This document shows positions 7,440-25,684 of a stretch of DNA of 64,000 bases, in pieces. The DNA comes from a virus (Duplodnaviria > Caudoviricetes): positions 32,001-96,000 of IMG/VR virus record IMGVR_UViG_3300033555_000001; one strand, written 5' to 3'. The notes beneath the pieces were generated by a model. That model was given only the letters and a program-made list of their open reading frames with translations. It had not been told where the DNA came from and did not search any database. The translations under genes and the position numbers were made by a program. How positions within the stretch are numbered: the first letter of the stretch is position 1; every line of letters starts with the position of its first letter.

Positions 7440-8429
7440 ATGGAACACCAACAAACTGGCGAGTTAAACAACGATTTCCGCACTTGCTTGTCTCATCTAA
7501 TGGAGAATGGGCTTACTGCAAATCCTCGCGGCACTGTTACTAAAGAGTTACTAAATTACAATATTTCTTTGCTGGACGCGCGAAATCGCGTTATTACATT
7601 TCCAGATCGCAAAACTAACCTAAAATACTTGCTTGGCGAATTTGTGTGGTATCTCACTGGAGCCAATACGGTTAATGGCATATTACCTTATTCAAAATTC
7701 TGGGCCAATATTACAAACTCAGGCGATTTTGAAGAGATTGGTTATGCAGCCGGAACTATTAATTCAAACTACGGTTACCGGTTATTTGGGCACGACGAGT
7801 TTTCGGACGTTCCAGGCAAGCGCGATGAGACTGGTACAATCCAGTGGTTGAGTCAGTGGGAGGCCGTTATTGATCTTCTCAGCCGGGATAAAGACAGTCG
7901 TCAGGCAATTTTAAATATTCACCGCCCAAGCGATCGCCATCCAGGAAACTCAGATGTGCCGTGCACACTGTCTCTGCAAGTGTTGATCCGCGAGAATAAG
8001 CTGCACATGATTACCAATATGCGCAGCAACGACATTGTGCTTGGATTCACAAATGACGTGTTTCAATTTACCATGCTGCAAGAGTGTTTGATGGTTCAGC
8101 TTAAAGATGTCTACCCGGAACTAGAGCTTGGCACGTATTTCCACAACGCTGGTTCCATGCATGCTTATGACCGGCACTTTGCAATGGCTGCAGCTATTAT
8201 TGCTGATGAAAATGCAGTCGAGAAATCCATGATTCCAATGGACGAATTTAACCTGGGTGTAGTTGAGAAACTAGCATTTATTGAGCAGTTATGGGTTCAC
8301 CACGGAATGCCTGCAGCTTTTGATTTCGCTCAAGTGCCATCTTTTAACGAGCTGTCTCCTTACTGGCAAAATTTAGTTAAGTTCTGTTTTTCCTCGGATC
8401 CTGCAGCAGAACTAGCAATCTTTAAGTAA
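7440..8429 (+). CDS. Thymidylate-synthase-family dCMP-modifying enzyme (hydroxymethylase/hydroxylase)
   Basis: SRQAI, catalytic PC (DVPCT) and MRSNDIVLGFTND, with Asp at the specificity position as in T4 gp42 (MRSNDVVFGFRND). Confidence 0.8.
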   Translation: MEHQQTGELNNDFRTCLSHLMENGLTANPRGTVTKELLNYNISLLDARNRVITFPDRKTNLKYLLGEFVWYLTGANTVNGILPYSKFWANITNSGDFEEIGYAAGTINSNYGYRLFGHDEFSDVPGKRDETGTIQWLSQWEAVIDLLSRDKDSRQAILNIHRPSDRHPGNSDVPCTLSLQVLIRENKLHMITNMRSNDIVLGFTNDVFQFTMLQECLMVQLKDVYPELELGTYFHNAGSMHAYDRHFAMAAAIIADENAVEKSMIPMDEFNLGVVEKLAFIEQLWVHHGMPAAFDFAQVPSFNELSPYWQNLVKFCFSSDPAAELAIFK

Positions 8430-8436
8430 GACTTAC

Positions 8437-10179
8437 ATGAAATATAAAGAACAAATAGAGGAAGCTTATAATTACCTTGGGTTCACCCCTAGAGGAAACC
8501 AATTAGCGGACATCAGCTTGATTTTAACTGGTTTTCTTGATGAAGGATTTAAGACTCAAATCTTGTCTGCACCAACTGGTACTGGCAAATCTATAATTGG
8601 CGCAATTACTGCAGAAGTTCTGCATAAAATTAGAGCTCCTGACGTACATCACGGGGCCTCTTTTTTACTTTCGCCAACTAACATATTGAGCGAGCAATAC
8701 CACAACACTTTTCAAAAAGGCCGTGATCCGCTTGACACCCGCTTCAGGATGCTAAAGGGCGCCAGTAATTTTACCTGTGCAGCGCTGTCAACCCCAGAGG
8801 AACCCCAAACAGCAGAGCATTGCGCAATCAGAATGTTTCAGAAAGCTGACATGCTGTCAGTCATTGCCGACAACTGTGACAGCTGCGAATTTGCCCTGCA
8901 AAAAAGAATGCGCGACAAGGCCAGGCATTTAATTACAAATTATAGCTACTACTTTGTTGACCGAATGTACTTGGAAATTCTGGCCAAGCGCACCGTCACC
9001 GTCTTTGACGAAGCGCACATGATCAACGATTTGTTCACAGAGCACAACGCAATTTATTTCAGCGATTCTAGACTCAAGAAAATGGTTGATGAAATTGGTG
9101 AGCACCTGTCTATTGGCCACCGCGGAATTTTTAAAATAATCAAAGAAATTAAAGAAGCCATGAACAATGGCGAGATTGAACAGCACACGTACATGAAGTA
9201 CTTGGGGCTGCTTGCAGATGTCTATGGTCAGGTAACTGAAGCCGCGCAACTTGAACTAGAACGGTGTAACCCACGCAACCAGACAAAATACATGGCTCTT
9301 AGCAAGCTATCAAAAAAGTATTTTGGCCTTGGTTGCAAGATCAGTGACTTAATGATCTATGACTACCCACATGCTTTTGAGTACAAAGAAAAAAATCCAA
9401 AAGAGAAATTCTCAGAGGATGAGGTTTCGGTTAAGCCAATTTTTGTTGGTGAGATGTTTGACAAGTTAATTAACGCTGAATTTAATTTGTTAATGAGCGC
9501 GACTCTCAGCGAGCAGTACGCCCGGCGCACAATGACCCTTGAAAATGCTAAACACATTAGGCTGGCCCCGTCGTTCCCGCGAGAGAATAAAAAAGTTGTG
9601 TTCTATAAGCCTCAAAATTTAAACCAGACAACGCTTAAAACTCCGGTCACAATCAAAGCGCTGCAATCGGCAGCGTATGAAATCGCAGCGCATCACTCTG
9701 AGTTGGGCCACCGGGGCGTTGTGCTTGCGCCTAGCTTTGCTCTTACTGGAGATATAGCCGCGGCGCTTGAGGCCCGCGGTCTTAAAGCCAGAATTTACGA
9801 GCATCAGCGAGGTGAAAAGCTAGCAGAGGTGCTTGGTAGATTTACTCGTCACGCTGATGGCCCCGCAATTCTTCTTACGCCATCGGGCTTTGAGGGGCTA
9901 GACTTGGTCGGCGATTTAAGCCGGTATCAAATTATTTTGAAGGCGCCGTTTGGCTCTCTAGGCGAGGCGCGCATGAAAAAGATTTTGGCGGTTTGGCCGG
10001 ACATTTATTCTCTGATGACATTATCAAAATTAGTACAGGGTGCCGGAAGATCAGTTAGATCAGCAGAAGATTTTGCTACTACGTACATGTTAGACTCGAA
10101 TATTCAGAGGCTGTGGACTTCAAAACAAAACGAGTGGAGCAACGAGTTTCAGACCAGTTTTTCCAGCATTCTGTCATAA
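8437..10179 (+). CDS. DinG/Rad3-like superfamily 2 helicase
   Basis: SAPTGTGKS Walker A, DEAH, MSATL, EGLD and QGAGRSVRS motif VI; Cys residues consistent with an Fe-S cluster. Confidence 0.85.
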   Translation: MKYKEQIEEAYNYLGFTPRGNQLADISLILTGFLDEGFKTQILSAPTGTGKSIIGAITAEVLHKIRAPDVHHGASFLLSPTNILSEQYHNTFQKGRDPLDTRFRMLKGASNFTCAALSTPEEPQTAEHCAIRMFQKADMLSVIADNCDSCEFALQKRMRDKARHLITNYSYYFVDRMYLEILAKRTVTVFDEAHMINDLFTEHNAIYFSDSRLKKMVDEIGEHLSIGHRGIFKIIKEIKEAMNNGEIEQHTYMKYLGLLADVYGQVTEAAQLELERCNPRNQTKYMALSKLSKKYFGLGCKISDLMIYDYPHAFEYKEKNPKEKFSEDEVSVKPIFVGEMFDKLINAEFNLLMSATLSEQYARRTMTLENAKHIRLAPSFPRENKKVVFYKPQNLNQTTLKTPVTIKALQSAAYEIAAHHSELGHRGVVLAPSFALTGDIAAALEARGLKARIYEHQRGEKLAEVLGRFTRHADGPAILLTPSGFEGLDLVGDLSRYQIILKAPFGSLGEARMKKILAVWPDIYSLMTLSKLVQGAGRSVRSAEDFATTYMLDSNIQRLWTSKQNEWSNEFQTSFSSILS

Positions 10180-10227
10180 CCTGAAGCAGCAAGACTATAA
10201 CTTTTAAATTCTGTATAGAATAGAGCT

Positions 10228-11463
10228 ATGAGCGATGACATAGATGACATGATGGCTGAATTAGACCGCGGCTTTTTAAGAGGGCTGTCGCTAGGTAGGG
10301 CGCCAGGTGGTGGCTTTACCGCTAAGAAGCGGCGCCGAAGAATTAAAGCTGAAGACAAGCGTAGGCAACTAGCCCGCCGGTACAAATCAAAAAAATTACT
10401 TGACCCAATAGAAATGAGGAACCATATGGAAGACGCGCCACTCCGGACCAAAGAAGCTCAAGAGACAAGCGGTGTTATTTTTGGTGCCTACAGTACCGAC
10501 GAGTGGGTATCTAGTACTCACCTGCGCACATCAATTGAAGCTGGTAAAAATACTCTTGCTATGGAAGGCACGTGGGTAACTCCAGCGGGCTGGAAATTGA
10601 GTGAGTGGGTCATGCAAATTAGTGATCGTTATAATTTTGTTTCAATGAACCGAGCGCTTGTCTTTATGCCATGGGGCATGATTGAAGCCAGTGTGAGCCG
10701 CGGCAAATTAGAGCTTGAACTAAACGGCACTCCAGAAAATGTTTTGGCGTTTATCAAAGCGCTGGACGACAGAACTACCACAGCACTAAAGCGAGCTGAG
10801 AATTTAATTGAGTGGGTTTACAGCGCCAGAGGTGATTCTATTTCAGTGCCACTGAACTACCGCCCCGCAATTAATGGTGCCTATCCATGGCTGCCAAAAG
10901 ATCTAGACAGCTATATTGATGACTACCTTAATTCACAGGCCAGCGTACTTATTCTGATTGGCAAGCCTGGAACCGGTAAGACTACATTCATCAAAAACCT
11001 GATTCACCGCAGCGGTGGTGATGCAAAAGTAACCTATGATGAAGCGGTAATGTCCGGTGATTCGTTGTTTGCTGGCTTTATTGAATCAGAAGACCGCTTT
11101 ATGATCATGGAAGATGCTGACATGTTCTTGAAGAGCCGTGAAGATGGGAACAGCATGATGCACCGGTTCTTGAACGTGAGTGACGGCCTGATTTCGGCGC
11201 AGGATAAAAAGCTCGTATTCAGTACGAACCTGCCAAGCGTGCGCGATATTGATTCTGCACTGATGCGACCAGGCCGCTGTTTTGACGTGGTGGAGTTCCG
11301 CCCTCTCACTCGTGTTGAAGCACAAGTAGTAGCCTCTGAAATGTCGGTTGAGCTGCCTGATGGAAATGAGTTCACTCTTGCCGAAATATTTAATGTGCAG
11401 CCAAGTGGTGACGTTAACAGCAACGCCCGCACCGTAAAACGTAAGATTGGGTTTGCCTCATGA
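10228..11463 (+). CDS. AAA+ ATPase
   Basis: GKPGTGKTT, MIMEDAD Walker B, FSTN sensor, SALMRPGRCFD SRH. Confidence 0.85.
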   Translation: MSDDIDDMMAELDRGFLRGLSLGRAPGGGFTAKKRRRRIKAEDKRRQLARRYKSKKLLDPIEMRNHMEDAPLRTKEAQETSGVIFGAYSTDEWVSSTHLRTSIEAGKNTLAMEGTWVTPAGWKLSEWVMQISDRYNFVSMNRALVFMPWGMIEASVSRGKLELELNGTPENVLAFIKALDDRTTTALKRAENLIEWVYSARGDSISVPLNYRPAINGAYPWLPKDLDSYIDDYLNSQASVLILIGKPGTGKTTFIKNLIHRSGGDAKVTYDEAVMSGDSLFAGFIESEDRFMIMEDADMFLKSREDGNSMMHRFLNVSDGLISAQDKKLVFSTNLPSVRDIDSALMRPGRCFDVVEFRPLTRVEAQVVASEMSVELPDGNEFTLAEIFNVQPSGDVNSNARTVKRKIGFAS

Positions 11464-11756
11464 TTATTTCATCGCGCCCTGATGAATCATTTTCAGCGCA
11501 CGCTGATTTTACTCAGGCAGAACTTGAGCTTATGACCGTGCTGTTGTATAATGTAAAGCTCGGCAATGGTTTTACTGAATGGAGAGACGCTGCTTTTACG
11601 CTGATTAACAAATTAGACGATATGGCGTTTTACAAATATCAAAATATGGATTTTGCTGCCGATGCGGTTGCAAAGATAAACATGGAGATTCACTTGCTTG
11701 ATTCCCGTGGTCGTGCTGCAGGAATCTTAAATGAAGATTACGAAATAGTCGTTTAA
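11460..11756 (+). CDS. Hypothetical protein
   Basis: ATGA-coupled ORF within the operon. Confidence 0.6.
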   Translation: MIISSRPDESFSAHADFTQAELELMTVLLYNVKLGNGFTEWRDAAFTLINKLDDMAFYKYQNMDFAADAVAKINMEIHLLDSRGRAAGILNEDYEIVV

Positions 11757-11765
11757 GGAGCTAGT

Positions 11766-12299
11766 GTGGTTAAAAATTTAATGATTGAGGGGCTTGATCG
11801 TCTCGGTAAAGATACGCTTATTGAGGGCATTCAAAGTCTATTAGGTTACCATCAGGTACTGCATTACTCAAAGCCAATGGCTCTCAAGAAGTATCTTAAT
11901 GACCTGCAAATGTATCAACGAGTCTCGTTTACCGTGATGTTTGATTTGCTAAACAGTTATCACCGGATAATTTGTAATCGAGCGCACTTGGGCGAGTGCG
12001 TATATGCTCCTCTGTACCGAGGGTACGACGGAAACTACGTGTTTGACATTGAGGACAAGTTTGACACTAGCAATACTCGGCTAATTTTGCTGACCGAAGA
12101 TTTTAAAATTGCTCGACACTTTGTTGACGACGGCCTGTCACTTGGCGCAATTGAGAATCGCGAGCGCGAGCAAAATATGTTTATTGAGGCATTTGAAAAA
12201 TCAACCATTGAAGATAAGAGAATTATCTGTGTTACTGACGAGAAGCTGGGCGGTTTTAAACCAAAGCACAGGGTGCTTGAACTAGCGCTTGCCGCATGA
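11766..12299 (+). CDS. Thymidylate-kinase-like dNMP kinase
   Basis: IEGLDRLGKDT P-loop and NRAHLGECVYAPLYRGY (DR-like motif); AGGAG RBS. Confidence 0.7.
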   Translation: MVKNLMIEGLDRLGKDTLIEGIQSLLGYHQVLHYSKPMALKKYLNDLQMYQRVSFTVMFDLLNSYHRIICNRAHLGECVYAPLYRGYDGNYVFDIEDKFDTSNTRLILLTEDFKIARHFVDDGLSLGAIENREREQNMFIEAFEKSTIEDKRIICVTDEKLGGFKPKHRVLELALAA

Positions 12300-12934
12300 G
12301 ACTGGTCCTGACGAGTGATACTCATTCACCCGTCAGGCCAGGTGACATTCCAGATGGTGACGTATTTGTACATGCTGGCGATTTGCTGCGCACCGGTTAT
12401 GTTACTGAATGGCCCGCTGCGCTGGACTGGTTAGCCGCACTTCCTCATAAGATTAAACTGTTTGTGCCTGGCAATCATGACTTTCACCTTCAAGTCTATC
12501 CTGGCCCAGCGCTGCAGGATTTACGGCGAGCAGGTGTGGTTGTGGTTGGCTTGCCAAATAACCCTCATTATGAAACTTACTTGTTGCCTAACAAGATGTC
12601 GTTACTAGGCCTGCCGTACGTGACCGGACTTCCACGGTGGGCTTTTAACACTACGGAAGTAGAGCTCTGTGCATACCTTAAACGGGTTGGCAGGCATGAC
12701 GTAGTCATCAGTCACGCGCCGGTATATGGAATATTAGATCAGGTTAGTACTGTTAACTCCGGCATCACTGCGTACCGATCATATCTCCTTGAACACACAC
12801 CACTGTTGTGGGTGCACGGCCATATTCACGAGTGCTATGGATCTGCGCTTGTTGAGGGCTGCCAATTTTATAATGTTGCCATGTGCAACAGAAAGTATGA
12901 ACATGCTAATGCACCAGTAATTGTAGATCTCTAA
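12296..12934 (+). CDS. Calcineurin-like metallophosphoesterase
   Basis: SDTH, HAGD, GNHD, SHAP, HGHIHE motifs. Confidence 0.9.
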   Translation: MRLVLTSDTHSPVRPGDIPDGDVFVHAGDLLRTGYVTEWPAALDWLAALPHKIKLFVPGNHDFHLQVYPGPALQDLRRAGVVVVGLPNNPHYETYLLPNKMSLLGLPYVTGLPRWAFNTTEVELCAYLKRVGRHDVVISHAPVYGILDQVSTVNSGITAYRSYLLEHTPLLWVHGHIHECYGSALVEGCQFYNVAMCNRKYEHANAPVIVDL

Positions 12935-13066
12935 TCGGTCAGAGATTTGTTACGTGTGATCCCATAAATTGTGAACTATTCTTTTGTTGCTGACAGTATA
13001 ATGGTGTTGACATTGTAAATTGTTAAAAAATGTAACATTTAATTATAAAAAGAAAAGGGAGTCACA

Positions 13067-13267
13067 ATGAGTACCGAACACCCAGCTTTTCAGATCTCGG
13101 CAGCACAAATTATAGCAAACAGATATTACGCACTTCTTGCCGTGCACGGACCAGCCATTGCGCTATTGCTGCAGTGCAAAGAGGCGCACATTGGCATCTT
13201 GCTAGACCAGCTAGCAGCTCAGAAAAACTGTGAACATTCCTGTATAAACAACAAAGACCATCAATAA
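13067..13267 (+). CDS. Hypothetical protein
   Basis: GGGAG RBS, downstream of TATAAT at 12997-13002. Confidence 0.5.
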   Translation: MSTEHPAFQISAAQIIANRYYALLAVHGPAIALLLQCKEAHIGILLDQLAAQKNCEHSCINNKDHQ

Positions 13268-13314
13268 ACGCACCTTGCCCTGCCGATAACAAGTGGTTAA
13301 TTAAAAATAATAAT

Positions 13315-13572: not shown

Positions 13573-13651
13573 TCTACCCAGGATTGGTCCGACCGGTATT
13601 TTTAACCGGTGTATGATCTCTCTATCAGAAAATATTTAAGCAAGGAATACA

Positions 13652-14803
13652 ATGAAGATTGCCGTTATTAAACTTGGTGCCAGAATTACTTGGGAAACAG
13701 ACGCAGCGGTCGGGCCGGGCGAGGCAATCTCCATCTGTAAAGCTCTTACACTGGGTGGTGCAGAAGTTCACGTGTTTACTAAGCTCCTGACAAAAGACAC
13801 GCTTGACCCAAGTTTAGTGTGGCACAACTTGCTAGATGATACCGACACTGGCGCACTTGATGCTCTACTCATAATTAACGGCAATGTTAATTTTTTTGGA
13901 GGCCAAGAAGACGAGGCGCAAATTCTAAACTACAAAATTATCAATCAGTTCGCTGGTACTGTAGTGTACGTGATGTGCGACCCCGAACTGCCGCTGTGTC
14001 AGATCTGGGACAGCGTAAGTAAAAAGCCGTGGGGCTCAAAGTACAATGAAGCCGATGTTAACATTACGCGTTTAGATATTAACGTGCTGTCACAACCCTT
14101 TTCGGTACCCAAGGTGCTGGGTCGCTGGACAAATAAAAAGGGTACTGCACCCGTTGCCCGGCTGTTTCACTTTCCAATGGAGAGATTTCCACTGTTGAAC
14201 GAGTGGTTAGATCCTAAGCCAGCACCAGAGATTGATCTGCTATATGGTGGTACTACGCGCGGTGGGCGCCGAGTTCCTAATTTGTTTAAGTGGTACTACG
14301 GCATGCCAGAGTCTATCAAAACCGAAATTTTTGGTTCTATTGATCATGATGATTTTGTAAAGCATACGAAAATTAATCAGGATTTGCTGGCAAGTACTCG
14401 TGCACCAGATTTTACTGGCATGGTGAAATACCGGCATGTGCTGCCAAAAATGAATAATTCACTGGCTCACCTGGTAACCGGCGATCCGTCCTATGAAGAA
14501 CTAGACATAATTCCACAGCGCACGTATGAGTGCATTGCTGCGGGTAACGTGGTTTTTGTTGATGCGGCAATGGACATCAGCCGGCGAATTTACCCTGCTG
14601 GCGACGAAATGGCAGAATTTTTATATGTTAACACGCGGGCTGAGCTGATTGATAGAATTACAGCATTAAAAGAAGACAGCTCTGTACGGCAGTACGTATT
14701 AGATTATCAAAAAAGTGCTACAAATTTTAACGCCGTAAATTTCTGCACATCACTAGTGCAGAAAATAAAATCACTAGAAACTTATCCCTGGTGCCGAAAA
14801 TAA
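13652..14803 (+). CDS. bgt: DNA beta-glycosyltransferase (T4 Bgt homologue)
   Basis: Colinear with T4 Bgt: MKIAVIKLG, INGNVNFFGG, CDPELP (D100), YGGTTRGGRR (R191/R195), GDPSY, QRTYE (R269/E272), YVNTRAELIDRITALK. Confidence 0.85.
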   Translation: MKIAVIKLGARITWETDAAVGPGEAISICKALTLGGAEVHVFTKLLTKDTLDPSLVWHNLLDDTDTGALDALLIINGNVNFFGGQEDEAQILNYKIINQFAGTVVYVMCDPELPLCQIWDSVSKKPWGSKYNEADVNITRLDINVLSQPFSVPKVLGRWTNKKGTAPVARLFHFPMERFPLLNEWLDPKPAPEIDLLYGGTTRGGRRVPNLFKWYYGMPESIKTEIFGSIDHDDFVKHTKINQDLLASTRAPDFTGMVKYRHVLPKMNNSLAHLVTGDPSYEELDIIPQRTYECIAAGNVVFVDAAMDISRRIYPAGDEMAEFLYVNTRAELIDRITALKEDSSVRQYVLDYQKSATNFNAVNFCTSLVQKIKSLETYPWCRK

Positions 14804-14822
14804 AATTACTAGGAACCACAAA

Positions 14823-14981: not shown

Positions 14982-14990
14982 CGGCACACA

Positions 14991-15722: not shown

Positions 15723-16388
15723 ATGCTTAAATTTGATCACCCAACGCTTGTAACCTTAACCGCCCCAACGTGTGCAGGAAAGAATTTTTTACTTGACGCT
15801 CTCGCGGAAAATTTTGGTTTTTCGAGAATCGTCAGCACCACTGATCGTGCAGCTCGCATGGGCGAGATTGAAGGCGTGCACTACAATTTTATCAGCACTG
15901 AAAAATCTCTAGCAATGGAGAGAGATAATTTGTTTGCAGAACTTGTTACGTACAACGGCACGCGGTACGGAGTGACCCATGTAGAGATGGCAAATAAAGT
16001 ACAGGCTGGTTTACCGCCGCCAATTGTAATTCTCGAGCCACAGGGGCTGCAGATTTATAAGAAGTACTGCATGCAGCAAGGTTGGCAACTCTTCAGCGCG
16101 TTTATCAATACGCCTGAAAAGATCCGGCTCAGTAGATTAGTTCAACGAACAACAGATGATATTTGTACTGCAGTAGACAGCCTAGAATCAGATATTCTGG
16201 CCGCATCTATTGCTAAAATAATTGCCGTGAACAACGCGCGGCTGACGTCAGTAATTGAGAATGAACGGATGTGGTTGCACGCAAGCGACTGGCACGCAAT
16301 TGTTTCCGGTACTGACATTAAAGAGGCACTAAACACAGTGCAATTAGGTGTTGCAAATCGTAAGCTTAAAAACGGCGTATATCAATAA
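15723..16388 (+). CDS. Guanylate-kinase-like NMP kinase
   Basis: TAPTCAGKN P-loop; VSTTDRAARMGEIEGVHYNFIS and YNGTRYG GK signature. Confidence 0.85.
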   Translation: MLKFDHPTLVTLTAPTCAGKNFLLDALAENFGFSRIVSTTDRAARMGEIEGVHYNFISTEKSLAMERDNLFAELVTYNGTRYGVTHVEMANKVQAGLPPPIVILEPQGLQIYKKYCMQQGWQLFSAFINTPEKIRLSRLVQRTTDDICTAVDSLESDILAASIAKIIAVNNARLTSVIENERMWLHASDWHAIVSGTDIKEALNTVQLGVANRKLKNGVYQ

Positions 16389-17007: not shown

Positions 17008-17556
17008 TTACTGCAAATTATTAAATGATTGTGTTTGCACAGCTTGAACAGTCGTGATGTTGTTAAGCGTTGTCCACGCAGTGCCGTCAGACGAATACTG
17101 AAATGCATATGATTTAGCATGATACCCACTGCTGGCATCAAAAGCAAACATTTGTACAGAACTTATTGCTTTAGTTATTCCAGCACCAAAGTTTATTCCC
17201 CAGTGAACAACCAAGTTACTTCCCTCAGCACCTACATTTTGCCAATAAGTTGACACGTCTTCGTCAGCTGCCTTAGATGTGTCAAATGTCCCACCTAAAG
17301 TCTGATTAGATATAGCAATGCCACCTGTTGATAAGTTTGGCCCAGAACAATCAATGCTTTCATAGAATCTGTATTCGCGAACAGCATGAAAATATGGTGC
17401 GGTGCCGTACGGATCTATCCAGCTTGTGTTTGTTGCGAGCAATCGCCAGTACTGATAAGAAGCCTTGGTGTTGATAACACTAGCTATAACACTAGCCTTG
17501 CTAAATTTACCAAGCCCGCCCAATAAACCGTTTGATAGTGTGCTAATAATCGGCAT
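17008..17556 (-). CDS. Discoidin/F5-8 type C (galactose-binding-like) virion accessory protein
   Basis: YWRLLAT, KAADEDVSTYW, FQYSSDGTAWTT; follows a fibre gene. Confidence 0.65.
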   Translation of the reverse strand: MPIISTLSNGLLGGLGKFSKASVIASVINTKASYQYWRLLATNTSWIDPYGTAPYFHAVREYRFYESIDCSGPNLSTGGIAISNQTLGGTFDTSKAADEDVSTYWQNVGAEGSNLVVHWGINFGAGITKAISSVQMFAFDASSGYHAKSYAFQYSSDGTAWTTLNNITTVQAVQTQSFNNLQ

Positions 17557-17570
17557 ATAATTTTCCTATT

Positions 17571-19877
17571 TTAAGCAAACTTGGTAGCAGTTGCCAAGAC
17601 CGTGTATGTTGAAGCTGCCGTCTTGATAACTGTTAATGAGTACGAATCAATTGCATTCACTGAACCAGCTGTTGGTGCCGTTCCATTCCATTTTGGCGTT
17701 ACTACAGTACCATCAATTGTAAAGACGGTTGGATAAAACGCAGTAGCGCCGTTTGTGACTAGCACCGCGATCGACGCTGACTGGCCAATTGCCATGGTGT
17801 TATTCAGAGTAGCTGTGCTGCTGCCACGGATGTTCAGCGTGAAGTTAGCAGTTGCAGCAACTGTAAAGTTCCAAACAGCGGCAGTGTTTAGATCAATTTG
17901 TGTTGTTGCTGTTGGCGCGGTAGCTGTGGTGTTTACTTTCTCCAACATTGCTTGAACACTGGTATTACCAGTAAGTGTTGCACCAGTAAGTGTTGCACCA
18001 GTAAGTGTTGCACCAGTTGATGAAACATAACCCTGAGCTTTTACAAACGCGGTTGTTGCAAGTTTTGTTGATGAGTCTGCAGTAGCTGGTGTTACCGATG
18101 TTGGACTAATCTTAAAATCTAGAATCTTAGAAGCACGGTTAATGCTATAAACTATAGTTTGAGTGCCTGTATCACCTTGAGCAACCATGTTAAAATTTGA
18201 ACCACCATCACTTCCAGACTCAGCTGTGTTATCAGCGTGCATATTCCAACGACCGCTGGCGCCACTTGTCCAATACAGTGTTCTGAACGAACCAGCAGGA
18301 CTGCTTATGAGGAGATTATTGGTGGTTGCGGTAATTGTGCCGACGTTATCAATACGGAAGCGTTCCGTATTAGCTGTCTTCATGTAAACAAAACCCGGTA
18401 TTCCACTGCCGCCAGCACCACCAGCAAGTGTTATATCGCCGCCGCCAGCCGCCCCAGTATTGTTGTTACCACCACGAACAATTACGCTACCAGCTCTCTG
18501 TTGTGCTGAATCAGCACCACGCACTGTTAATAGTCCAGCTGCATTGGCTGTAGACACGTCACCAGCATTAACTGTTAAGTCCCTTTGTTGATCTGATCTA
18601 AAACTAGCGGTAGCAGTACTGATCGTTATGGAGGTGGGAGTTATAGTTATTTTATCTGCCGCAACTGTTGGGTTGGTAAGAGTTAAAGCACTACTTGCCG
18701 CATATGTAAAGTTTGACGACGCGCCAAAAGCCCCTGCATTGTTATATTGGATTTGTGTATCAGCACCCGCAACAGTACCACCAACACCATACCCTTGTGC
18801 TTTAACGAATGCAGTAGTTGCTAACGCCGTAGAGCTATCAGCGGTTGCTGCGGTTGGGGCTGTCGGTGTACCGGTAAGGGCAGGTGATACTGCATGCACG
18901 CCGGAACCGGTACCAGTTGACGTAGTTGTTCCTGTACCACCTTGCAGCACTGATAGCGCTGTTGTTAAACCAGTAAGCGATGTGATGTTAGAGTTTGCGC
19001 CTGATGTAGCAACGCCACCGACGTCGGCCGCGACCAGAACAACAGCTCCTGTTTTGCCAGCTACGGATGTCACAGATCCAGCAGTTGTAACATACCCTTG
19101 GGCTTTAACAAATGCCGTGGTTGCGAGTTGAGTAGAATCTGTAGCCGGGGCTGCCGTTGGAGCTGTTGGAGTACCAGTAAAGGCAGGTGAAGCAAGTGCA
19201 GCAACTCCACTGACGTCCGCTACAGTAAGTACAATTGCGCCCATCCTACCAGCAACACTTGATACTTCGCTTTGTGAACCGTCAATTCCGTCCCAGGCGG
19301 TGCCGTTGAACAGAACCAAATCGCCAACATTAAAACTAACTAGCCCATTCAACGAGGAAAAGAAAGTAAATGTTTGAGTTGGGTTAGTGAACGTTGCTTG
19401 ATCAATTGTTAGAGATGTGCCACTTACTATAGTGACGGTTGCTGTGCCAATGATGTTCCCACCAGTAACACTTTGACCTACTGTAATTCCAGTAGAGCTG
19501 ATCAGTATCGTAAGGCCGCTGTTACTTTCCGTTGGTGATCTTACGGTTGTAGTACCTGGTAACAATCCAGCTGTTGATACTTTGTAGTATTCACCTTTTA
19601 CGCCAACACTAGAAACAAGAGCGGGAGTGTTTGTAACAGGATTCCAAGTACCCTTAAAATCAAGGCCACCAGCTACACCTGCAATAGCCGCATCAACGTA
19701 AACTGAGTCTGGCTGTCGAAGCCACGCAGCGCCTGAGTAAACGTGCAGCCCTAGTCCAGCGTCTGTTCTAAAAAAAAGTTCGCCAGTGCTTGGATTAAGT
19801 GGAAATGTGGTTCCCTGAGCAAGTGTCAGGTTTTGAAAAGTAGAGCCCTCAATAAGGGTAAGGCCATCGGTCAACAT
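17571..19877 (-). CDS. Virion fibre protein
   Basis: Three ...TAFVKAQGY fibre repeats (SPAFTGTPTAPT...ATTAFVKAQGY), VSSVAGRMG/VTSVAGKTG motifs, beta-sandwich C-terminus; TAAATA at 19905-19910. Confidence 0.8.
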   Translation of the reverse strand: MLTDGLTLIEGSTFQNLTLAQGTTFPLNPSTGELFFRTDAGLGLHVYSGAAWLRQPDSVYVDAAIAGVAGGLDFKGTWNPVTNTPALVSSVGVKGEYYKVSTAGLLPGTTTVRSPTESNSGLTILISSTGITVGQSVTGGNIIGTATVTIVSGTSLTIDQATFTNPTQTFTFFSSLNGLVSFNVGDLVLFNGTAWDGIDGSQSEVSSVAGRMGAIVLTVADVSGVAALASPAFTGTPTAPTAAPATDSTQLATTAFVKAQGYVTTAGSVTSVAGKTGAVVLVAADVGGVATSGANSNITSLTGLTTALSVLQGGTGTTTSTGTGSGVHAVSPALTGTPTAPTAATADSSTALATTAFVKAQGYGVGGTVAGADTQIQYNNAGAFGASSNFTYAASSALTLTNPTVAADKITITPTSITISTATASFRSDQQRDLTVNAGDVSTANAAGLLTVRGADSAQQRAGSVIVRGGNNNTGAAGGGDITLAGGAGGSGIPGFVYMKTANTERFRIDNVGTITATTNNLLISSPAGSFRTLYWTSGASGRWNMHADNTAESGSDGGSNFNMVAQGDTGTQTIVYSINRASKILDFKISPTSVTPATADSSTKLATTAFVKAQGYVSSTGATLTGATLTGATLTGNTSVQAMLEKVNTTATAPTATTQIDLNTAAVWNFTVAATANFTLNIRGSSTATLNNTMAIGQSASIAVLVTNGATAFYPTVFTIDGTVVTPKWNGTAPTAGSVNAIDSYSLTVIKTAASTYTVLATATKFA
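17967..18011. repeat. 15-bp tandem repeat x3 encoding GATLT
   Basis: ACCAGTAAGTGTTGC repeated three times in frame. Confidence 0.9.
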
Positions 19878-20022
19878 AAAAGCAATCTCCTAGAGTAGAT
19901 CGTGTATTTAGTCTTAACCTGAATTATCAGGTGTCAAACCGCCTCACGCCAGAGATAGAATGAATCTTACTTTGGTGTGAGGCAAACATGAAAAATTCCC
20001 TGTACAGAATAGAGAGCTCAAC

Positions 20023-20178
20023 ATGAGGCTCTGGATGTGGCAGCTGCTGATTTGCCTGTTTTTGCTGGCGTGGACGGCCGTTGGGATTTGGGACTGGAGC
20101 CTGTGCGTTGAGAGCGGCGGTGATTCTCTTGCGTGCACGTTCAGGTATCCTGTTTCTCAGCTGTATCTACTGCAGTAA
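20023..20178 (+). CDS. Small membrane protein (51 aa)
   Basis: MRLWMWQLLICLFLLAWTAVG...; read by hand. Confidence 0.45.
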   Translation: MRLWMWQLLICLFLLAWTAVGIWDWSLCVESGGDSLACTFRYPVSQLYLLQ

Positions 20179-20224
20179 CCGTTACAATTCTCTTGTGTTA
20201 TTAATAAGAGCTAATTGTTAGAAT
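20178..20224 (+). promoter_or_regulatory. ACCGTTACA-box promoter
   Basis: ACCGTTACA-N32-TAGAAT upstream of ORF 20249. Confidence 0.55.
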
Positions 20225-20248
20225 ATACTCAATTACTAAGGAACAACC

Positions 20249-20524
20249 ATGTCTGATTTAATTAGCCGTATCAATGACATTACAAAAGACGCCAACAACA
20301 GCGATGACGTAAAAATCAAAGAGCTAATAGGTTTCTATTTTAAAAATACTGTGTACCTTTCTCCAGATATGATTGGCCTAATTCTTTTTAATATTGAGCG
20401 AATTGTAAATGCGCGTGTGATTAAAAATCCGGATCCTGGTGTTCCGCTTAATGCAGGTGTTAATGTCGTGCAGCTAGTACCAAAACATCCAGACAGGCGG
20501 TCCAATCGCGGGCGCGAAATTTGA
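20249..20524 (+). CDS. Hypothetical protein
   Basis: AAGGA RBS. Confidence 0.6.
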   Translation: MSDLISRINDITKDANNSDDVKIKELIGFYFKNTVYLSPDMIGLILFNIERIVNARVIKNPDPGVPLNAGVNVVQLVPKHPDRRSNRGREI

Positions 20525-20542
20525 TACCCGCGAAAGATTAAA

Positions 20543-20791
20543 ATGATTCCACCAGATCAGCCACTGAACACTGCGGTTTTTAAAAGTAGTGATTTGATAA
20601 AGTGTTATAGACCGCCTAGTCTTCTGTCAGTAATGCCTGGAAATAAAGTAATGTTAGGTTCGTCAGGGCCGTGTATGATTGTTGCTGATGTTGATAAAAA
20701 TGGCGATGCAGTATGCCAATTTGAAGATGATGGAAAATTGGTGCAGTATACTTTTCCCTTAGCCATGCTTACGTGCTTTGGCGCTGAATAA
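20543..20791 (+). CDS. YodC/DUF2158-like protein
   Basis: GNKVMLGSSGPCMIV...VCQF...YTFPLAML. Confidence 0.6.
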   Translation: MIPPDQPLNTAVFKSSDLIKCYRPPSLLSVMPGNKVMLGSSGPCMIVADVDKNGDAVCQFEDDGKLVQYTFPLAMLTCFGAE

Positions 20792-20804
20792 TATTGAGAT
20801 TAAA

Positions 20805-21218
20805 ATGATTCATATTATCTATTTGATTCTAATTGTCCTTGCATACAATTTTGGCTGGACAGCTGCACACCGAATGGTTGCAAGAGAATCCGAGTTGCTT
20901 GGCAAATTCTTTGTAGGTTCTAAAGTTTTTAAGAGTGAGCTGATTGAAGATCGCAGTCCAGCAGTCAAGGCAGATCTTCAACCGATACCGCAAGATTCTA
21001 TTTCAACTAACACTGTTAAAACTTCAGAGTCTGCAGTAGATTTAACTCACTTTATAGTAGGCAGCAAAGTATTTTTAAAATCCGGTGGTGCGCTAATGGA
21101 GGTTATTGGAATTCTTGATAACACGGATGTAGTCTGCTGGTATAGGAAAGATTCAGCAATTACGTTTGGAACTTTTCCACAAGCTGTGCTAAGAGGTTTA
21201 TCCAAGCAAACTAAGTAA
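20805..21218 (+). CDS. Membrane-anchored protein with C-terminal YodC/DUF2158-like domain
   Basis: N-terminal TM helix; VGSKVFLKSGGALMEV...VCWY...GTFPQAVL. Confidence 0.6.
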   Translation: MIHIIYLILIVLAYNFGWTAAHRMVARESELLGKFFVGSKVFKSELIEDRSPAVKADLQPIPQDSISTNTVKTSESAVDLTHFIVGSKVFLKSGGALMEVIGILDNTDVVCWYRKDSAITFGTFPQAVLRGLSKQTK

Positions 21219-21243
21219 TAATTGCATTTTAACGGGGGCTAAC

Positions 21244-21483
21244 GTGATATTAAATCTTTCTACAGAAAAGCATTTTGAGTTGTATGTTCTTGCTGCCATC
21301 GCAGCACCAGGCCCAACTACAGAGCAAATAACGACGGCTCAGAGGATGGATAAAAACTTGAATCCATATAACGACTACAATAAACCTAAGTTGCGAGATA
21401 CGGTTGAGATTATTGCTGATTACAAATTAGGCTGTGCAGACATTCTTCTAGCACGAGCAGTAAAGCAATTTGAAAAGGCATGA
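21244..21483 (+). CDS. Hypothetical protein
   Basis: GGGGG RBS and GTG start. Confidence 0.5.
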   Translation: MILNLSTEKHFELYVLAAIAAPGPTTEQITTAQRMDKNLNPYNDYNKPKLRDTVEIIADYKLGCADILLARAVKQFEKA

Positions 21484-21489
21484 TGTTAT

Positions 21490-21771
21490 ATGTGCAAAAA
21501 CCCATGTAAAGAATGTCCGTTTAAAGTTGAGAACGCCGGGCAGCTGTGTCATATCATGGTAGACCAAATGGAGGATAATGCTCAGTACCTCAAAGGGTTT
21601 CCGTGCCACATGAAAAACCCTAACAACGATATCCTGACGTGCGAGTCCCCAGCGCAAAACGCGAATGACTGCTCCGGGTTTAAGCGGATGCGAGAAAATC
21701 AGATGGCGGGATATGACGTAACTCTTCACCCAGATGTCGTTAGTTCATTTGACGAATTAATGAATTACTAA
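21490..21771 (+). CDS. Cys-rich metal-binding hypothetical protein
   Basis: PCKECPF, FPCHM, CSG motifs. Confidence 0.55.
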   Translation: MCKNPCKECPFKVENAGQLCHIMVDQMEDNAQYLKGFPCHMKNPNNDILTCESPAQNANDCSGFKRMRENQMAGYDVTLHPDVVSSFDELMNY

Positions 21772-21812
21772 ACGCTATTTGTCACCTAATGCCTCTATAA
21801 CGCGAGAATAAG

Positions 21813-22268
21813 ATGCGATTTTACTGCTTTGTTAATAACGTCTATATGTCTGCCATCCAACACGGAATTCAGACCGCTCACGCCGTGTCAGAAATGAGCT
21901 TTAAAACCGCTCGTAATCCTGAAGCTCACGCAAAATATCTGATGTGGGCAGCGTGGCACAAGACGATCATTGTGTTACAAGGCGGGAATGTAGAGAATCT
22001 GCTGCGCTTAGAAAATGAAATAACTATATTGGCTAAGGAACTCGAACTGCCAGCTGTATCGTTCAGAGAAGATGAGGCGAGTCTCGGCGGAATAATTACC
22101 GCTGTGGCCGTGATACTTCCAGAAGCACTCTACGACACTGAGGTAGTGAAAGACGAAGACGGCTATACTGCCTTTAAACCACCTGTGGTTGGTGCGCAGT
22201 GGATCTCTGATTCATGGAGCCCCGAGCATAAACTGCTGTCGTTAATCAAGCTTGCTCGCCTTGCCTAG
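21813..22268 (+). CDS. Peptidyl-tRNA hydrolase 2 (Pth2)-like protein
   Basis: GIQTAHAV, HKTIIVL, FRED...LGGIITAVAV pattern of the Pth2 fold. Confidence 0.6.
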   Translation: MRFYCFVNNVYMSAIQHGIQTAHAVSEMSFKTARNPEAHAKYLMWAAWHKTIIVLQGGNVENLLRLENEITILAKELELPAVSFREDEASLGGIITAVAVILPEALYDTEVVKDEDGYTAFKPPVVGAQWISDSWSPEHKLLSLIKLARLA

Positions 22269-23017
22269 TCCAGACTCTTGACCCAGCGCTGATTAATTTT
22301 GGCGCGCTCTTCTGCGGTTATGGATAACAGCGCTTTTGCAATAATACTCGGGAGCACTGTGTTTCCCTTTAGTACTGCAAAATTGTAGGCGTAGTCGAAT
22401 CCAATCTGAGTTGCAGAGGTAGGAAGTTCAGTATTTTGGCGCAGCCACAAGTACGTGGCGTGATCCATTACTGCAGCCTCTACCGCGCCGGCGAGCATGG
22501 CGTCCATTGACAGCGAATCATTATCAAATTCAACCAGCTTTGCAAATGGCAGTTCGCTGTCAACCCAGGCTTTTACGGAGAATTTTTTTGCAATACTTAC
22601 AGATTTGGGCAGCTCCAGTACTGGGGCAGTGGTTACCAGCACGCCGCCCACTAAAGAATATGGCGGCGTAAATTCCAAGTACTCTAGCCGTTCAGCATTA
22701 ACTCTAATTGTGGTAATAAGATCTACTTTTTTGTCTTGAACGGCCACCAGTCCGGCATGAAATGTGCTGAACTCAACGGGGACTAATTTTAGCCCGGTTT
22801 TCCGCTCAATTAGTCGCACATAATCTATAGACATGCCGCGGAGTTTATCACCGTCCTTAAACATGTACGGTGCATGAGCTGTTTCTGCAACAAAAGTAAT
22901 TGTCGGATTAGCTCTTATATATTCTTTTTCAAAAAGAGTTAACCCAATATCTGGTTTAATGGGCGTACATGCTGTGAAAAACGTAGTAGTAAAAAGAAGA
23001 ATAAATTTAAGCATCAT
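22265..23017 (-). CDS. Lipoprotein with type-2 periplasmic binding (PBPb/Venus flytrap) domain
   Basis: Lipobox FTAC; EKEYIRANPTI, APY...GMSIDY, KKVDL, ERLEYLEFTPPY; TAAATA at 23040-23045. Confidence 0.8.
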   Translation of the reverse strand: MMLKFILLFTTTFFTACTPIKPDIGLTLFEKEYIRANPTITFVAETAHAPYMFKDGDKLRGMSIDYVRLIERKTGLKLVPVEFSTFHAGLVAVQDKKVDLITTIRVNAERLEYLEFTPPYSLVGGVLVTTAPVLELPKSVSIAKKFSVKAWVDSELPFAKLVEFDNDSLSMDAMLAGAVEAAVMDHATYLWLRQNTELPTSATQIGFDYAYNFAVLKGNTVLPSIIAKALLSITAEERAKINQRWVKSLD

Positions 23018-23128
23018 CTAGCCCCGTGAGTGATGTACTTATTTACACCCGGAAATTCATCCTGATCTATATCGTTTAAGCGGGTGTTTTTCGATTAGAA
23101 TAAGTTCTTATATGTTATTGGAGACAGT

Positions 23129-23755
23129 ATGACTAGCCTGGCAAAAACAAACATTGAGCGCCAAATTGCAGCGCTTGAGCAACTTAACGGTGTTATTGAA
23201 TCAGCGGTATATCAGAAAATTGTTGATGCAGTTACCTCAGTGGCGCGGCAGAATTATCGTACTCGGGTGCTCATGGCTGGTGTTGGTAAAAACGCCAATA
23301 TCGCCGCTAAAATTTCAGAGACAATGGCAAGCTTAGGTATTCCTTCTATGCCAATTAATGTGTCGCACTTAGGGCATGGCGATTTTGGCTATATTGGTCC
23401 CTACGATACAATCATTCACATTTCACGGTCAGGTACTACGCGTGAGATGCTTGTGGCAATGGAACACATTGCGCTTATTCGACCAAGTGTGCTGCAGGTA
23501 CTGATTCACTGTAAGGCCGGCAAACCCGCAAACCCACATGCCGGTCTGGAGTTGTTTATTGGCGCAGTCAAAGAGGGTGATGAGCACGGCTTGGCTCCAA
23601 CAACAAGCACCACTGCGCTGCTCTGTATTTTAGACTGCATTTCTGTAGAAGCCTCGCACAACATTAAATTTGCTAGACTGAACTTTTTAAAGTTTCACCC
23701 GGATGGCGCACTTGGCGCGTTGCTTAAGGCTGAGCAGGAGAAGACAAATGTGTGA
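23129..23755 (+). CDS. SIS-domain sugar-phosphate isomerase (arabinose-5-P isomerase KdsD/GutQ-like, no CBS domains)
   Basis: GVGKN...AAKI, HGDFG, ISRSGTT, APTTSTT, FHPDGALG. Confidence 0.85.
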   Translation: MTSLAKTNIERQIAALEQLNGVIESAVYQKIVDAVTSVARQNYRTRVLMAGVGKNANIAAKISETMASLGIPSMPINVSHLGHGDFGYIGPYDTIIHISRSGTTREMLVAMEHIALIRPSVLQVLIHCKAGKPANPHAGLELFIGAVKEGDEHGLAPTTSTTALLCILDCISVEASHNIKFARLNFLKFHPDGALGALLKAEQEKTNV

Positions 23756-24026
23756 GTGCGAAGTTTGTAAGCACGGCCGGATTTTTACTAAGAAGATTGA
23801 GGAACTGCTCCCAGAGCAGCGAGATTATTTTATCAGCCTGTACGAAGAGCTAATCGAGACTAAGTTTGATCTGGAGTATAAAACAGCCCTCATTAACGGA
23901 ACACTGTCTAATTCAGTAGCCCGGTTATCCAAGGCACTAGAGCGCGCGGAAAATAACATTCGGATTATAAAGGGCAAAGCTTCATGCGTACTTAACCGCC
24001 CTATTCCAGGCAGAGAGGAATACTAA
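23748..24026 (+). CDS. Hypothetical protein (CxCxxC)
   Basis: AGGAG RBS; lies between the isomerase and nucleotidyltransferase genes. Confidence 0.55.
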   Translation: MCECEVCKHGRIFTKKIEELLPEQRDYFISLYEELIETKFDLEYKTALINGTLSNSVARLSKALERAENNIRIIKGKASCVLNRPIPGREEY

Positions 24027-25684
24027 TGAACGTAGTAATTGTTGCAGGTGGACTTGGATCAAGACTGGCACCGCTCACAAACAACGTGCCAAAGTTCCTG
24101 GTGAATATCGGCAAACAAACTGGTTACGTTGAACAGGTCAGATACTGGCTTAAAAATTTGCCACTGTTTGATGGTGGGAACTTATCGGCCAATACACTCA
24201 ATCTTACTGTAATTGTGCACAGCGCTTATGCAGACATGGTCAGCGAGTATCACAAGATGTATTTTCCGCTCGTTGAGCTCACCATCAAAACTACTGACGC
24301 GGCTAATGGATCAGCACATGCCATTAGTACTTGCTGCGAGCACCTAACTGGAGAATCGGTCTTTTTCCAGTGGTGCGACACCATGCCAAATCAACCGTTT
24401 ACTGGTGATATGTTACGGTGGATAAGTGGAAAAGCGAATATTATCTTTACTAATTACGACCACCCAAATCGCTATGGCACTAAGCAATTAGACGAGCTTG
24501 GCCCGGTTGAGGCTGTTTTACAGCCAGACGGCCGCGGCGGAATTTTCGGCCTGTACCACATTAGCAACTTTAAACCGCTTCCATACGCAGACGGTCAAGA
24601 TTTCGTAGAAGTAATTTCTCAGTACGGTACAAGCTATGAAGTACGGCTGGACTCCATAGTTGATTGGGGCGACATGCCTAAGCTTGAGCGCACTCGCTCT
24701 ACTGCTGATTCCGCTCGAGAGTTTAATAAAGTTGAGTTCCACGGTGAGCTTGTTGTAAAGTCCTCCTTGAACGAACAGGGTGACGGCCTCATTACCAAAG
24801 AAATGAATTGGTATAAGCTATTAAATGAGTTCAATGCGCCACTGCGTGGTATCAGAATTCCTAATACGTACTTTGGATCTGATGGAAAAAGTTTTATTAT
24901 GTCCCGCGTTAAAGGTGTGCCAGTATTTGAGCTGTGGCCGAGCCTGGACTCTGAAAATCGCGCTCTTGTTCTACAGCGGTTAATTGACCAAATGAAAAAG
25001 TTACATAGTCTGCATTCGATAAATGTGTCTAAAAAAGTTATTATCGACGACATTAAGACTGAGGCTCGAAATAAACTAATTTCCAGATGGCATGAAATTC
25101 GCGGCTTTGTTGAATGTTTTGGCGCGGTGAGCAGTGTTAACGGACAGGAGCTCTCTGGCTGTGGGCGAGATTACCCAGAATATATTATTAATTCGCTGTG
25201 TGACGAGTTAATTGGATGTGACGGAAATTCTGGAGTTTATGGCGCCCTTAACTTTTATTCTATCGTGCACGGCGATCTACAGATGTCAAACACCATGATT
25301 GACCCTGACACTCTAGAAGTTTCTATCATTGATCCTCGTGGATATTTTGGAAAAACCCTAGGTTATGGTCTGCCTGATTATGACATTGCTAAGTTGCTGT
25401 ACTCCCTTAATGGATACGACCTGTTTAACTACTCTAAGACCTTTCATATTGACGTGGTTAAAACTCCTTATAACACGACAGATATTAAATTCGATATCCC
25501 TCAGCCCGCTCTGGGGGGCTGCGAAGATATAATCGCACGCACCTTTAGAAGAGAACACCATATCTGGCTTGCCATCATCTTTCTTGGTTTGGCACAGTAC
25601 ATTAAAAATGATCCAGTTAAATGTATTGCTGCACATTATCACGGGCTGAGCCTTGCAGAGAAAGTGCTGTCCAGAAAGATATAA
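24026..25684 (+). CDS. Sugar nucleotidyltransferase (NTP transferase) fused to APH/choline-kinase-like phosphotransferase
   Basis: VAGGLGSRL...PKFLV N-terminus; HGDL..SN, IIDPRGYFG and YDIAKL C-terminus. Confidence 0.85.
   Translation: MNVVIVAGGLGSRLAPLTNNVPKFLVNIGKQTGYVEQVRYWLKNLPLFDGGNLSANTLNLTVIVHSAYADMVSEYHKMYFPLVELTIKTTDAANGSAHAISTCCEHLTGESVFFQWCDTMPNQPFTGDMLRWISGKANIIFTNYDHPNRYGTKQLDELGPVEAVLQPDGRGGIFGLYHISNFKPLPYADGQDFVEVISQYGTSYEVRLDSIVDWGDMPKLERTRSTADSAREFNKVEFHGELVVKSSLNEQGDGLITKEMNWYKLLNEFNAPLRGIRIPNTYFGSDGKSFIMSRVKGVPVFELWPSLDSENRALVLQRLIDQMKKLHSLHSINVSKKVIIDDIKTEARNKLISRWHEIRGFVECFGAVSSVNGQELSGCGRDYPEYIINSLCDELIGCDGNSGVYGALNFYSIVHGDLQMSNTMIDPDTLEVSIIDPRGYFGKTLGYGLPDYDIAKLLYSLNGYDLFNYSKTFHIDVVKTPYNTTDIKFDIPQPALGGCEDIIARTFRREHHIWLAIIFLGLAQYIKNDPVKCIAAHYHGLSLAEKVLSRKI

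Follow-up and report, generated by a model that had tools for sequence, protein, structure and literature searches.

A candidate pathway for arabinosylation of 5-hydroxymethylcytosine in the DNA of an uncultured jumbo phage

The stretch of DNA analyzed here (the window, 64,000 nt) covers bases 32001-96000 of the 310,728-bp IMG/VR virus record IMGVR_UViG_3300033555_000001, an uncultured jumbo phage labelled G000, with completeness of 87% by CheckV. The window carries a thymidylate synthase (TS) homolog predicted to make 5-hydroxymethylcytosine (5hmC), a DNA glycosyltransferase (GT) of the T4 Bgt family, and homologs of the RB69 genes for activation of arabinose (Table 1). We lean towards a hybrid system, in which a hydroxymethylcytosine and transferase set of T4 type would be combined with arabinose activation of RB69 type; the predicted product is arabinosyl-5hmC made by the Bgt-family enzyme. 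Judged by its genes, the phage probably makes a sugar-decorated base so far unconfirmed in any virus. A megablast search of the region against deposited phages gave no nucleotide match.

A preliminary description of this DNA had proposed that a Bgt-fold enzyme attaches a phage-made sugar derived from ribulose-5-phosphate to hydroxy(methyl)cytosine. This idea gained support from the RB69-like sugar genes, the hydroxymethylating (hm) type of the TS, the co-occurrence of the genes in related phages, their adjacency in a second lineage (G007), and the absence of a homolog of the RB69 and AbTZA1 arabinosyltransferases. A check of open reading frames (ORFs) recovered all the genes named there, on the plus strand and at their positions; the accompanying placement among early genes needs one qualification, in that minus-strand genes interrupt the block. 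Borne out were the Asp specific for deoxycytidine monophosphate (dCMP) in the TS-family enzyme (at the position of E. coli N177), the colinear Bgt homolog, now aligned over its full length, and the KdsD-like SIS isomerase and NTP-transferase/kinase fusion, which are homologs of the RB69 isomerase and AfhE. With respect to the two proposed nucleoside monophosphate (NMP) kinases, the guanylate-kinase-like one is clear, and the other is weakly Tmk-like in Pfam, backed by phrog_761 and by a positional match in the Ralstonia jumbo phage RsoM2USA. The gene described as similar to uracil-DNA glycosylase (UDG) has a weak structural match and no match to a sequence family.

Table 1. Features of the locus and of its surroundings, in window coordinates
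Feature	Coordinates	Strand	Evidence or remark
Tail-fibre-like gene	5422-7323	-	interrupts the block
TS-family enzyme, predicted dCMP hydroxymethylase (5hmdCMP synthase)	7404..8429 (alternative start ATG 7440)	+	PF00303 Thymidylat_synt, E 1.7e-21
Helicase and AAA ATPase		+	listed in the plus-strand gene set between TS (7404) and Tmk-like kinase (11766)
Tmk-like nucleotide kinase	11766..12299	+	Pfam weak, E 0.004; phrog_761, E 1.4e-8
Calcineurin-like metallophosphoesterase	12296..12934	+	PF00149, E 2e-10
T4 Bgt-family (GT-B) DNA glycosyltransferase, 383 aa, predicted base-proximal on 5hmC	13652..14803	+	PF09198 T4-Gluco-transf, E 2e-22; phrog_7922, E 3e-50
UDG-superfamily-fold protein, 159 aa	14991..15470	+	AlphaFold2 model, pLDDT 75; adjoins Bgt
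Guanylate-kinase-like NMP kinase	15723..16388	+	PF00625 Guanylate_kin, E 3e-13; phrog_1815, E 4e-26
Minus-strand genes	17008-19877	-	interrupt the block
F5/8 type C (discoidin) domain protein	17008-17556	-	
Periplasmic solute-binding protein	22265-23017	-	SBP_bac_3, E 1e-18
Arabinose-5-phosphate isomerase, SIS only, no CBS domains	23129..23755	+	phrog_5670 'arabinose 5-phosphate isomerase', E 2e-65
Small Cys-rich ORF	23703..24026	+	between isomerase and AfhE, probably outside the pathway
AfhE-like bifunctional protein: N-terminal sugar-1-phosphate nucleotidyltransferase, C-terminal sugar kinase	24026..25684	+	NTP_transferase and APH; phrog_4098, E 6e-102
Fpg/Nei-family DNA glycosylase	28167-29057	+	Fapy_DNA_glyco, E 9e-18, plus H2TH
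GT4-like glycosyltransferase	61576-62700	+	Glyco_trans_1_4, E 8e-9

The base-making enzyme

The TS homolog was aligned with E. coli ThyA, T4 gp42, RB69 gp48, AbTZA1 gp16, Thanatos-2 gp65, PTm1 ORF167, RsoM2USA gp10 and the homologs from four IMG/VR relatives. We observed that the window protein and all its relatives have W80, C146, D169, G173, N176 and D177 (ThyA numbering), which is the pattern of T4 gp42. The catalytic C146 of the window protein is accompanied by an Asp at the position of L143 (SDVPC, compared to SDFMC in T4) and by D177 in place of E. coli N177. Both W80 and D169 were present in the enzymes of G000 and its relatives G001-G004 and G010, as well as in RsoM2USA. Trp80, shared by ThyA and T4 gp42, is presumably a folate contact, as in ThyA structures. 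Conversely, the hydroxylase group (RB69, AbTZA1, Thanatos-2 and PTm1) reads A or K80, N169, V173, L176 and D177. The best matches in the PDB were the folate-dependent CMP hydroxymethylase MilA (E 1.4e-25) and T4 gp42 (E 2e-17), and identity of the TS across G001-G004 ranged from 59 to 68%.

The phages RB69 and DLP3 make no 5hmC; their TS homologs are flavin-dependent 5-hydroxy-dCMP synthases (Lee et al. NAR 2026, PMC13326640). All the hydroxylases tested had Asn at ThyA position 169, and their cytosine specificity came from N177D (PMC13326640). The D169N replacement diagnostic of 5-hydroxy-dCMP synthases is absent from the window enzyme, which has D169; N169, the mark of the hydroxycytosine type, was seen in each of the 29 other TS homologs located within 10 kb of AfhE in IMG/VR loci. 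We predict 5-hydroxymethyl-dCMP (5hmdCMP) as the product because the T4 gp42 signature is present and the signature of the 5-hydroxycytosine synthases is not, and we consider it very likely that the enzyme is a dCMP hydroxymethylase.

The Bgt-family transferase

The transferase aligns colinearly with T4 Bgt (1bgt), residues 2-358 against 2-332, with 28% identity and a phmmer E-value of 1.3e-35. The seven T4 residues E22, D100, R191, R195, Y261, R269 and E272 were all kept in the window protein, in six IMG/VR relatives and in RsoM2USA. Following the T4 BGT structure, we take E22 and D100 to be catalytic and the other five to bind uridine diphosphate (UDP). The copies in the six IMG/VR contigs are 62-68% identical to the window protein, and that in G010 is 58% identical. 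The family is small, with 248 matches at E<=0.001, 82 of them at E<=1e-30, among 1.84 billion representatives; many of its uncultured members are nearer to the window protein (33-58% identity) than T4 Bgt is.

Transferases of the kind used by RB69 and DLP3 (RB69 gp46:47 and gp3; DLP3 gp76/77/79) were not found: tblastn of the whole record with the RB69 and AbTZA1 arabinosyltransferases gave no match at E<0.05. What a GT4-like protein encoded outside the window has in common with these enzymes is no more than a general GT-B fold of BshA type.

Two other Bgt loci may be mentioned. Tequatrovirus G3F6, a lower-scoring match, was set aside as an ordinary T-even locus with no sugar genes. In a 10.8-kb JGI contig (L134:7094-10468), a 46%-identical relative of Bgt adjoins a riboflavin biosynthesis operon (RibD, RibBA, DMRL synthase, NusB); the setting could be explained by a prophage or contig junction, or else a Bgt homolog may occur here in cellular surroundings.

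The genes for sugar activation

Over 205 aa, the isomerase and RB69 gp55 share 46% identity (E 7e-61). The fusion protein downstream of it matched both parts of RB69 AfhE (gp53:52), with 30% identity to gp53 (E 3e-25) and 33% to gp52 (E 9e-42). AfhE combines an arabinose-5-phosphate 1-kinase with a UDP-arabinose pyrophosphorylase. The motifs G9/R13/K23 (GxGxRL...K) and H415-G-D417/N422/D436 (HGD...N...D) were invariant across eight AfhE homologs.

The third enzyme of the published pathway is AfhF, a phosphatase of the haloacid dehalogenase (HAD) family that takes off the 5-phosphate. The phosphatase position varies elsewhere, being taken by a histidine phosphatase in PTm1 and by a KdsC-like HAD protein in G007 and G008. 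Among the relatives, the metallophosphoesterase next to the Tmk-like kinase was found in G000 only. A HAD-like ORF (DVDGV motif), with no database support, lies near a GT4-like gene in G001, G002 and G004 and is absent from G000. This complementary distribution is suggestive but weak, and a role of the metallophosphoesterase as stand-in for the sugar-bisphosphate phosphatase is speculative. The genes between the kinase and Bgt in the relatives are YqeY-like or without assignment.

Two further candidates from this part of the locus were rejected. The small Cys-rich ORF is not an equivalent of AfhF, as it has no match to RB69 gp51 and is unconserved in relatives. Frames of ~400 aa that start with the isomerase were seen in L025:8738-9943 (G004) and in L045, L049 and L052. 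The G004 frame, the only one scanned, is no phosphatase: it runs into a SegE-like GIY-YIG homing endonuclease, which occupies the place between the isomerase and AfhE, and a mobile endonuclease has therefore been inserted between the two genes there.

AfhE-like fusions with 25-29% identity were also present on IMG/VR contigs labelled 'GVMAG' (giant-virus metagenome-assembled genome), with no TS homolog within 10 kb (L076, L080, L081, L083-L089, L096-L098, L103, L104, L107). In L098 the isomerase and AfhE form one frame of 929 aa. Such contigs are either misbinned phages or carriers of a module with a use outside DNA.

Conservation of the gene set

In all four large related contigs (G001-G004, with G001 complete and having terminal repeats) the TS, the Tmk-like kinase, Bgt, the guanylate-kinase-like kinase, the isomerase and AfhE follow in the same order. 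The TS, kinase, Bgt, isomerase and AfhE genes were also present in G010, and the fragment G005 has Bgt and AfhE. The proposed check for co-occurrence of TS, Bgt, isomerase and fusion thus turned out positive: these genes, with the kinase, are kept together in all informative close relatives. A scan based on the AfhE alignment found 12 loci of the clade, with the isomerase directly upstream of AfhE in every one.

The same association was seen in a second lineage. In G007 (278 kb) the isomerase, AfhE, a KdsC-like HAD phosphatase (PDB 1j8d, E 8e-6) and a Bgt-family member (PF09198; 33% identity with the Bgt homolog of the window) are four adjacent genes on one strand, and the TS reads WCDGYD (D169, D177), that is, it is of the hm type. 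A 76-kb Logan contig (L136) carries the same four-gene cluster, with Bgt 83% identical to that of G007. In the AfhE tree, G007 stood alone on a long branch, while the window clade was sister (support 100/99) to G008, where the TS adjacent to AfhE carries N169. Therefore, AfhE seems to have been joined with an hm-type TS and Bgt on more than one occasion; G007, with its long branch, is uncertainly placed. G013 and G014, which have an AfhE-like gene, a WCDGND TS and a weak Bgt-like match, are a possible third case.

The Tmk-like kinase is kept in G001-G004 and is 43% identical to an RsoM2USA gene likewise located between TS and Bgt. Given its weak matches to RB69 gp45 (E 0.005) and AbTZA1 gp18 (E 0.004), it may correspond to the kinase found with the TS and the first GT in RB69, DLP3 and RL38J1. 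The guanylate-kinase-like gene, also kept in G001-G004, is possibly a dNMP kinase for the modified nucleotide. The neighbor of Bgt had no match in sequence searches against Pfam, PHROG and the PDB; its AlphaFold2 model gave weak Foldseek matches to UdgX (6ajp), family-4 UDG and SMUG1 (E 7e-4 to 3e-3). This protein has the motifs GDRPAP and HPA and is kept in G001, G002 and G004. Bacterial glycosylases of the UDG fold, such as Brig1, are described as attacking DNA with glucosyl-5hmC (PMC11078745). The phage protein could serve as a weapon against competitors or as a decoy. The roles given here to both kinases and to the UDG-fold protein are guesses.

Single in-frame stops were seen in some relatives: TAG in the GT4-like gene (L033, G004:44745-45787), and TAA and TGA in the TS genes (L018, that is G003, and L121, that is G010). 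Errors in sequencing, recoding and decay are all possible causes.

Phages with this Bgt subfamily and no AfhE encode a large CofD-family protein (579-709 aa) directly or two genes after Bgt (L005:14992-17983, which is RsoM2USA gp2-gp1 with CofD directly after Bgt; L131:5819-9949; L133:10001-14430). In two of these three loci CofD is followed by an IspD/NTP_transf_3 nucleotidyltransferase, and L131 also has a PGI-family isomerase. The TS homologs of the CofD-type phages are of the hm type, and G000 has none of the CofD-cassette genes. The set looks like a different, undescribed accessory cassette placed on the same core of TS and Bgt.

The proposed pathway

In the pathway that we propose, deoxycytidine would be replaced or supplemented by 5-hydroxymethyl-deoxycytidine. 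The gp42-like, folate-type dCMP hydroxymethylase would form 5hmdCMP, the two phage kinases would raise it to the di- and triphosphate, and the polymerase would incorporate it. In parallel, the isomerase would convert ribulose-5-phosphate to arabinose-5-phosphate, which the AfhE-like fusion would phosphorylate at C1. The 5-phosphate would then be removed by a phosphatase, the candidates being the metallophosphoesterase of the window or a host enzyme, and the N-terminal domain of AfhE would form UDP-arabinose. After replication, Bgt would glycosylate the hydroxymethyl group, most likely with the phage-made UDP-arabinose, to give arabinosyl-5hmC. A GT4-like transferase encoded outside the window (G000:296993-298037, minus strand) may extend the sugar.

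A wider version of this proposal, which we offer as tentative and slightly on the doubtful side, is that the donor of Bgt was switched from UDP-glucose to the phage-made UDP-arabinose, giving 5-(arabinosyloxymethyl)cytosine, the base formerly misassigned to RB69, and that the conserved core of hm-type TS, kinase and Bgt takes interchangeable cassettes (isomerase with AfhE in two lineages, CofD with an NTP-transferase in RsoM2USA-like phages). Such exchange would produce a family of undescribed cytosine hypermodifications.

If the pathway is as proposed, the natural hydroxymethyl route joined with arabinose would yield a new DNA base, and the modules with which phages make the base, make the sugar and transfer it in hypermodification would be recombinable. 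The product would be relevant to defenses that recognize the sugar or the linker, among them GmrSD/BrxU-type enzymes, Brig1-like glycosylases and CRISPR nucleases. A Bgt-family enzyme with a new donor could also be of use for 5hmC labelling.

Alternative explanations

Several observations weigh against the proposed pathway. Homologs of TS and Bgt (in RsoM2USA also of the kinase) occur in RsoM2USA (MG752970) and LR756500 with no isomerase or AfhE; therefore, the Bgt subfamily can use another donor, probably host UDP-glucose. A comparison of donor-pocket residues between the window clade and RsoM2USA, made without coordinates, gave no clear or interpretable difference. Phosphatases of the AfhF/KdsC type were not detected in G000 by tblastn with RB69 gp51, AbTZA1 gp15 and the KdsC-like HADs of G007 and G008, and a scan of the G000 ORFs for HAD motif I gave none. 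The record, at its 87% completeness, had no T4 gp56-like match and no MazG Pfam match; since no dCTPase was identified, the replacement of cytosine may be less than full. In G000 the sugar genes lie ~8 kb from Bgt, with minus-strand genes between. Finally, the AfhE-like genes on the giant-virus contigs with no TS nearby indicate that a link of the module to DNA is not universal.

The first of these points bears on the question of which transferase uses the arabinose. Bgt could take host UDP-glucose to make beta-glucosyl-5hmC, with UDP-arabinose left to a second transferase (the GT4-like protein encoded at 296993-298037 or an unrecognised one), and the result would be an arabinosyl-glucosyl-5hmC disaccharide. 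We consider this order of events rather unlikely, though it has several observations on its side: the occurrence of the Bgt subfamily without the sugar module, the identity of the UDP-contact residues with those of T4, and the conservation of the GT4-like protein in G001, G002 and G004. The AlphaFold2 model of that protein, a GT-B fold (pLDDT 72), had BshA-type GT4 enzymes (5d00, 3mbo) as its best Foldseek matches, and 3mbo is also the top reported Foldseek match of the DLP3 beta-arabinosyltransferases 2 and 3; a BshA-like best match, however, is shared by many GT4 enzymes.

The GT4-like protein is also present in RsoM2USA (42% identity), where there is no sugar module. Since both transferases occur there without the module, conservation alone cannot choose between them. 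In G007 neither the GT4-like protein nor any other second conserved GT was found, and Bgt is the sole transferase of the four-gene cluster. The balance tips towards Bgt because in G007 and L136 no other transferase lies next to the sugar genes; we give Bgt about an even chance of using UDP-arabinose directly.

The distance between the sugar genes and Bgt, the giant-virus contigs and the GT4 gene of the window would fit another explanation, in which the isomerase and AfhE provide a sugar for a glycan of the virion, the capsule or the lipopolysaccharide, for instance via this GT4, and the DNA carries ordinary glucosyl-5hmC. We find this improbable. The GT4 gene was absent from all five relatives searched (G001-G004 and RsoM2USA), and it was ruled out as a partner of the sugar module, which is conserved in relatives lacking it; for the same reason, the GT at 61594 is an unlikely user of the sugar product, a possibility raised in the preliminary description. 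In addition, the module and Bgt form one cluster in G007 and L136, no GT2-family transferases were found in the genome, and the module serves DNA arabinosylation in characterized phages (PMC13326640).

That the window merely holds the published arabinosyl-5-hydroxycytosine system of RB69 in a jumbo phage is highly improbable: the isomerase and AfhE are homologous to RB69 genes and the clade AfhE is sister to that of G008 with its N169 TS, but all clade members have D169, W80, G173 and N176 in the TS, neither an Aat-type transferase nor AfhF was found, and the transferase belongs to the Bgt family, which is absent from RB69 and DLP3 (PMC13326640).

Comparison with known systems

Arabinosylated phage DNA has been reported only on 5-hydroxycytosine (5hoC), ether-linked and made by GT4-like transferases, and RB69 and DLP3 lack T4-type glucosyltransferases (PMC13326640). 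The statement in the preliminary description that RB69-type phages use a transferase other than Bgt was therefore correct. An older assignment of arabinosyl-5hmC to RB69 was called erroneous by later work (PMC13326640, PMC13390438). We found no literature on jumbo phages with the gene combination described here.

The window system shares with that of T4 (glucosyl-5hmC made by gp42, the gp1 dNMP kinase, alpha-gt and beta-gt) the gp42 active-site signature and a transferase colinear with Bgt, in which Asp100, Glu22 and the UDP-binding residues are kept; the sugar is expected to be attached through the hydroxymethyl group. Unlike T4, the phage is a jumbo phage outside Straboviridae, its proteins are only 28-30% identical, a gp56-like dCTPase was not found, and it encodes a nucleotide-sugar pathway of its own, whereas T4 depends on host UDP-glucose.

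With the arabinosyl-5hoC phages RB69, DLP3, HY126 and Thanatos (PMC13326640; He et al. Nat Chem Biol 2026, cited there) the similarity lies in the isomerase (46%), the AfhE fusion (30-33%) and the Tmk-like kinase located next to the TS and the transferase. The differences are a TS of the hydroxymethylase type (D169, W80) compared to the flavin-type hydroxylase (N169, A80), a Bgt-family transferase compared to GT4-like Aat enzymes, the AfhF HAD phosphatase not found in the window phage, and a predicted CH2-O bridge in place of a direct ether to C5.

The closest deposited relatives are RsoM2USA and LR756500, with 35-39% identity in the TS and 38-40% in Bgt; RsoM2USA keeps the order of TS, kinase and Bgt, and it differs from the window phage in the CofD-family gene that follows Bgt, as do both in lacking the isomerase and AfhE. 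Their genes are annotated as hypothetical. The Rhizobium phage RL38J1, with hexosyl-5-hydroxycytosine, also places its TS homolog next to a Tmk-like kinase and the first transferase, and it makes a nucleotide sugar of its own (UDP-galactofuranose). However, its TS is of the 5hoC type, its sugars are hexoses rather than a pentose, and its transferases belong to other families.

Neighboring genes

The genes of the solute-binding protein and of the discoidin-domain protein sit on the minus strand inside the replication and modification block, and neither was seen in the matching regions of the relatives. Downstream of AfhE, the Fpg/Nei-family glycosylase is kept in G002 and G004 and is an unusual neighbor for a cytosine-modification locus. 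Cellular Nei enzymes excise oxidized cytosines.

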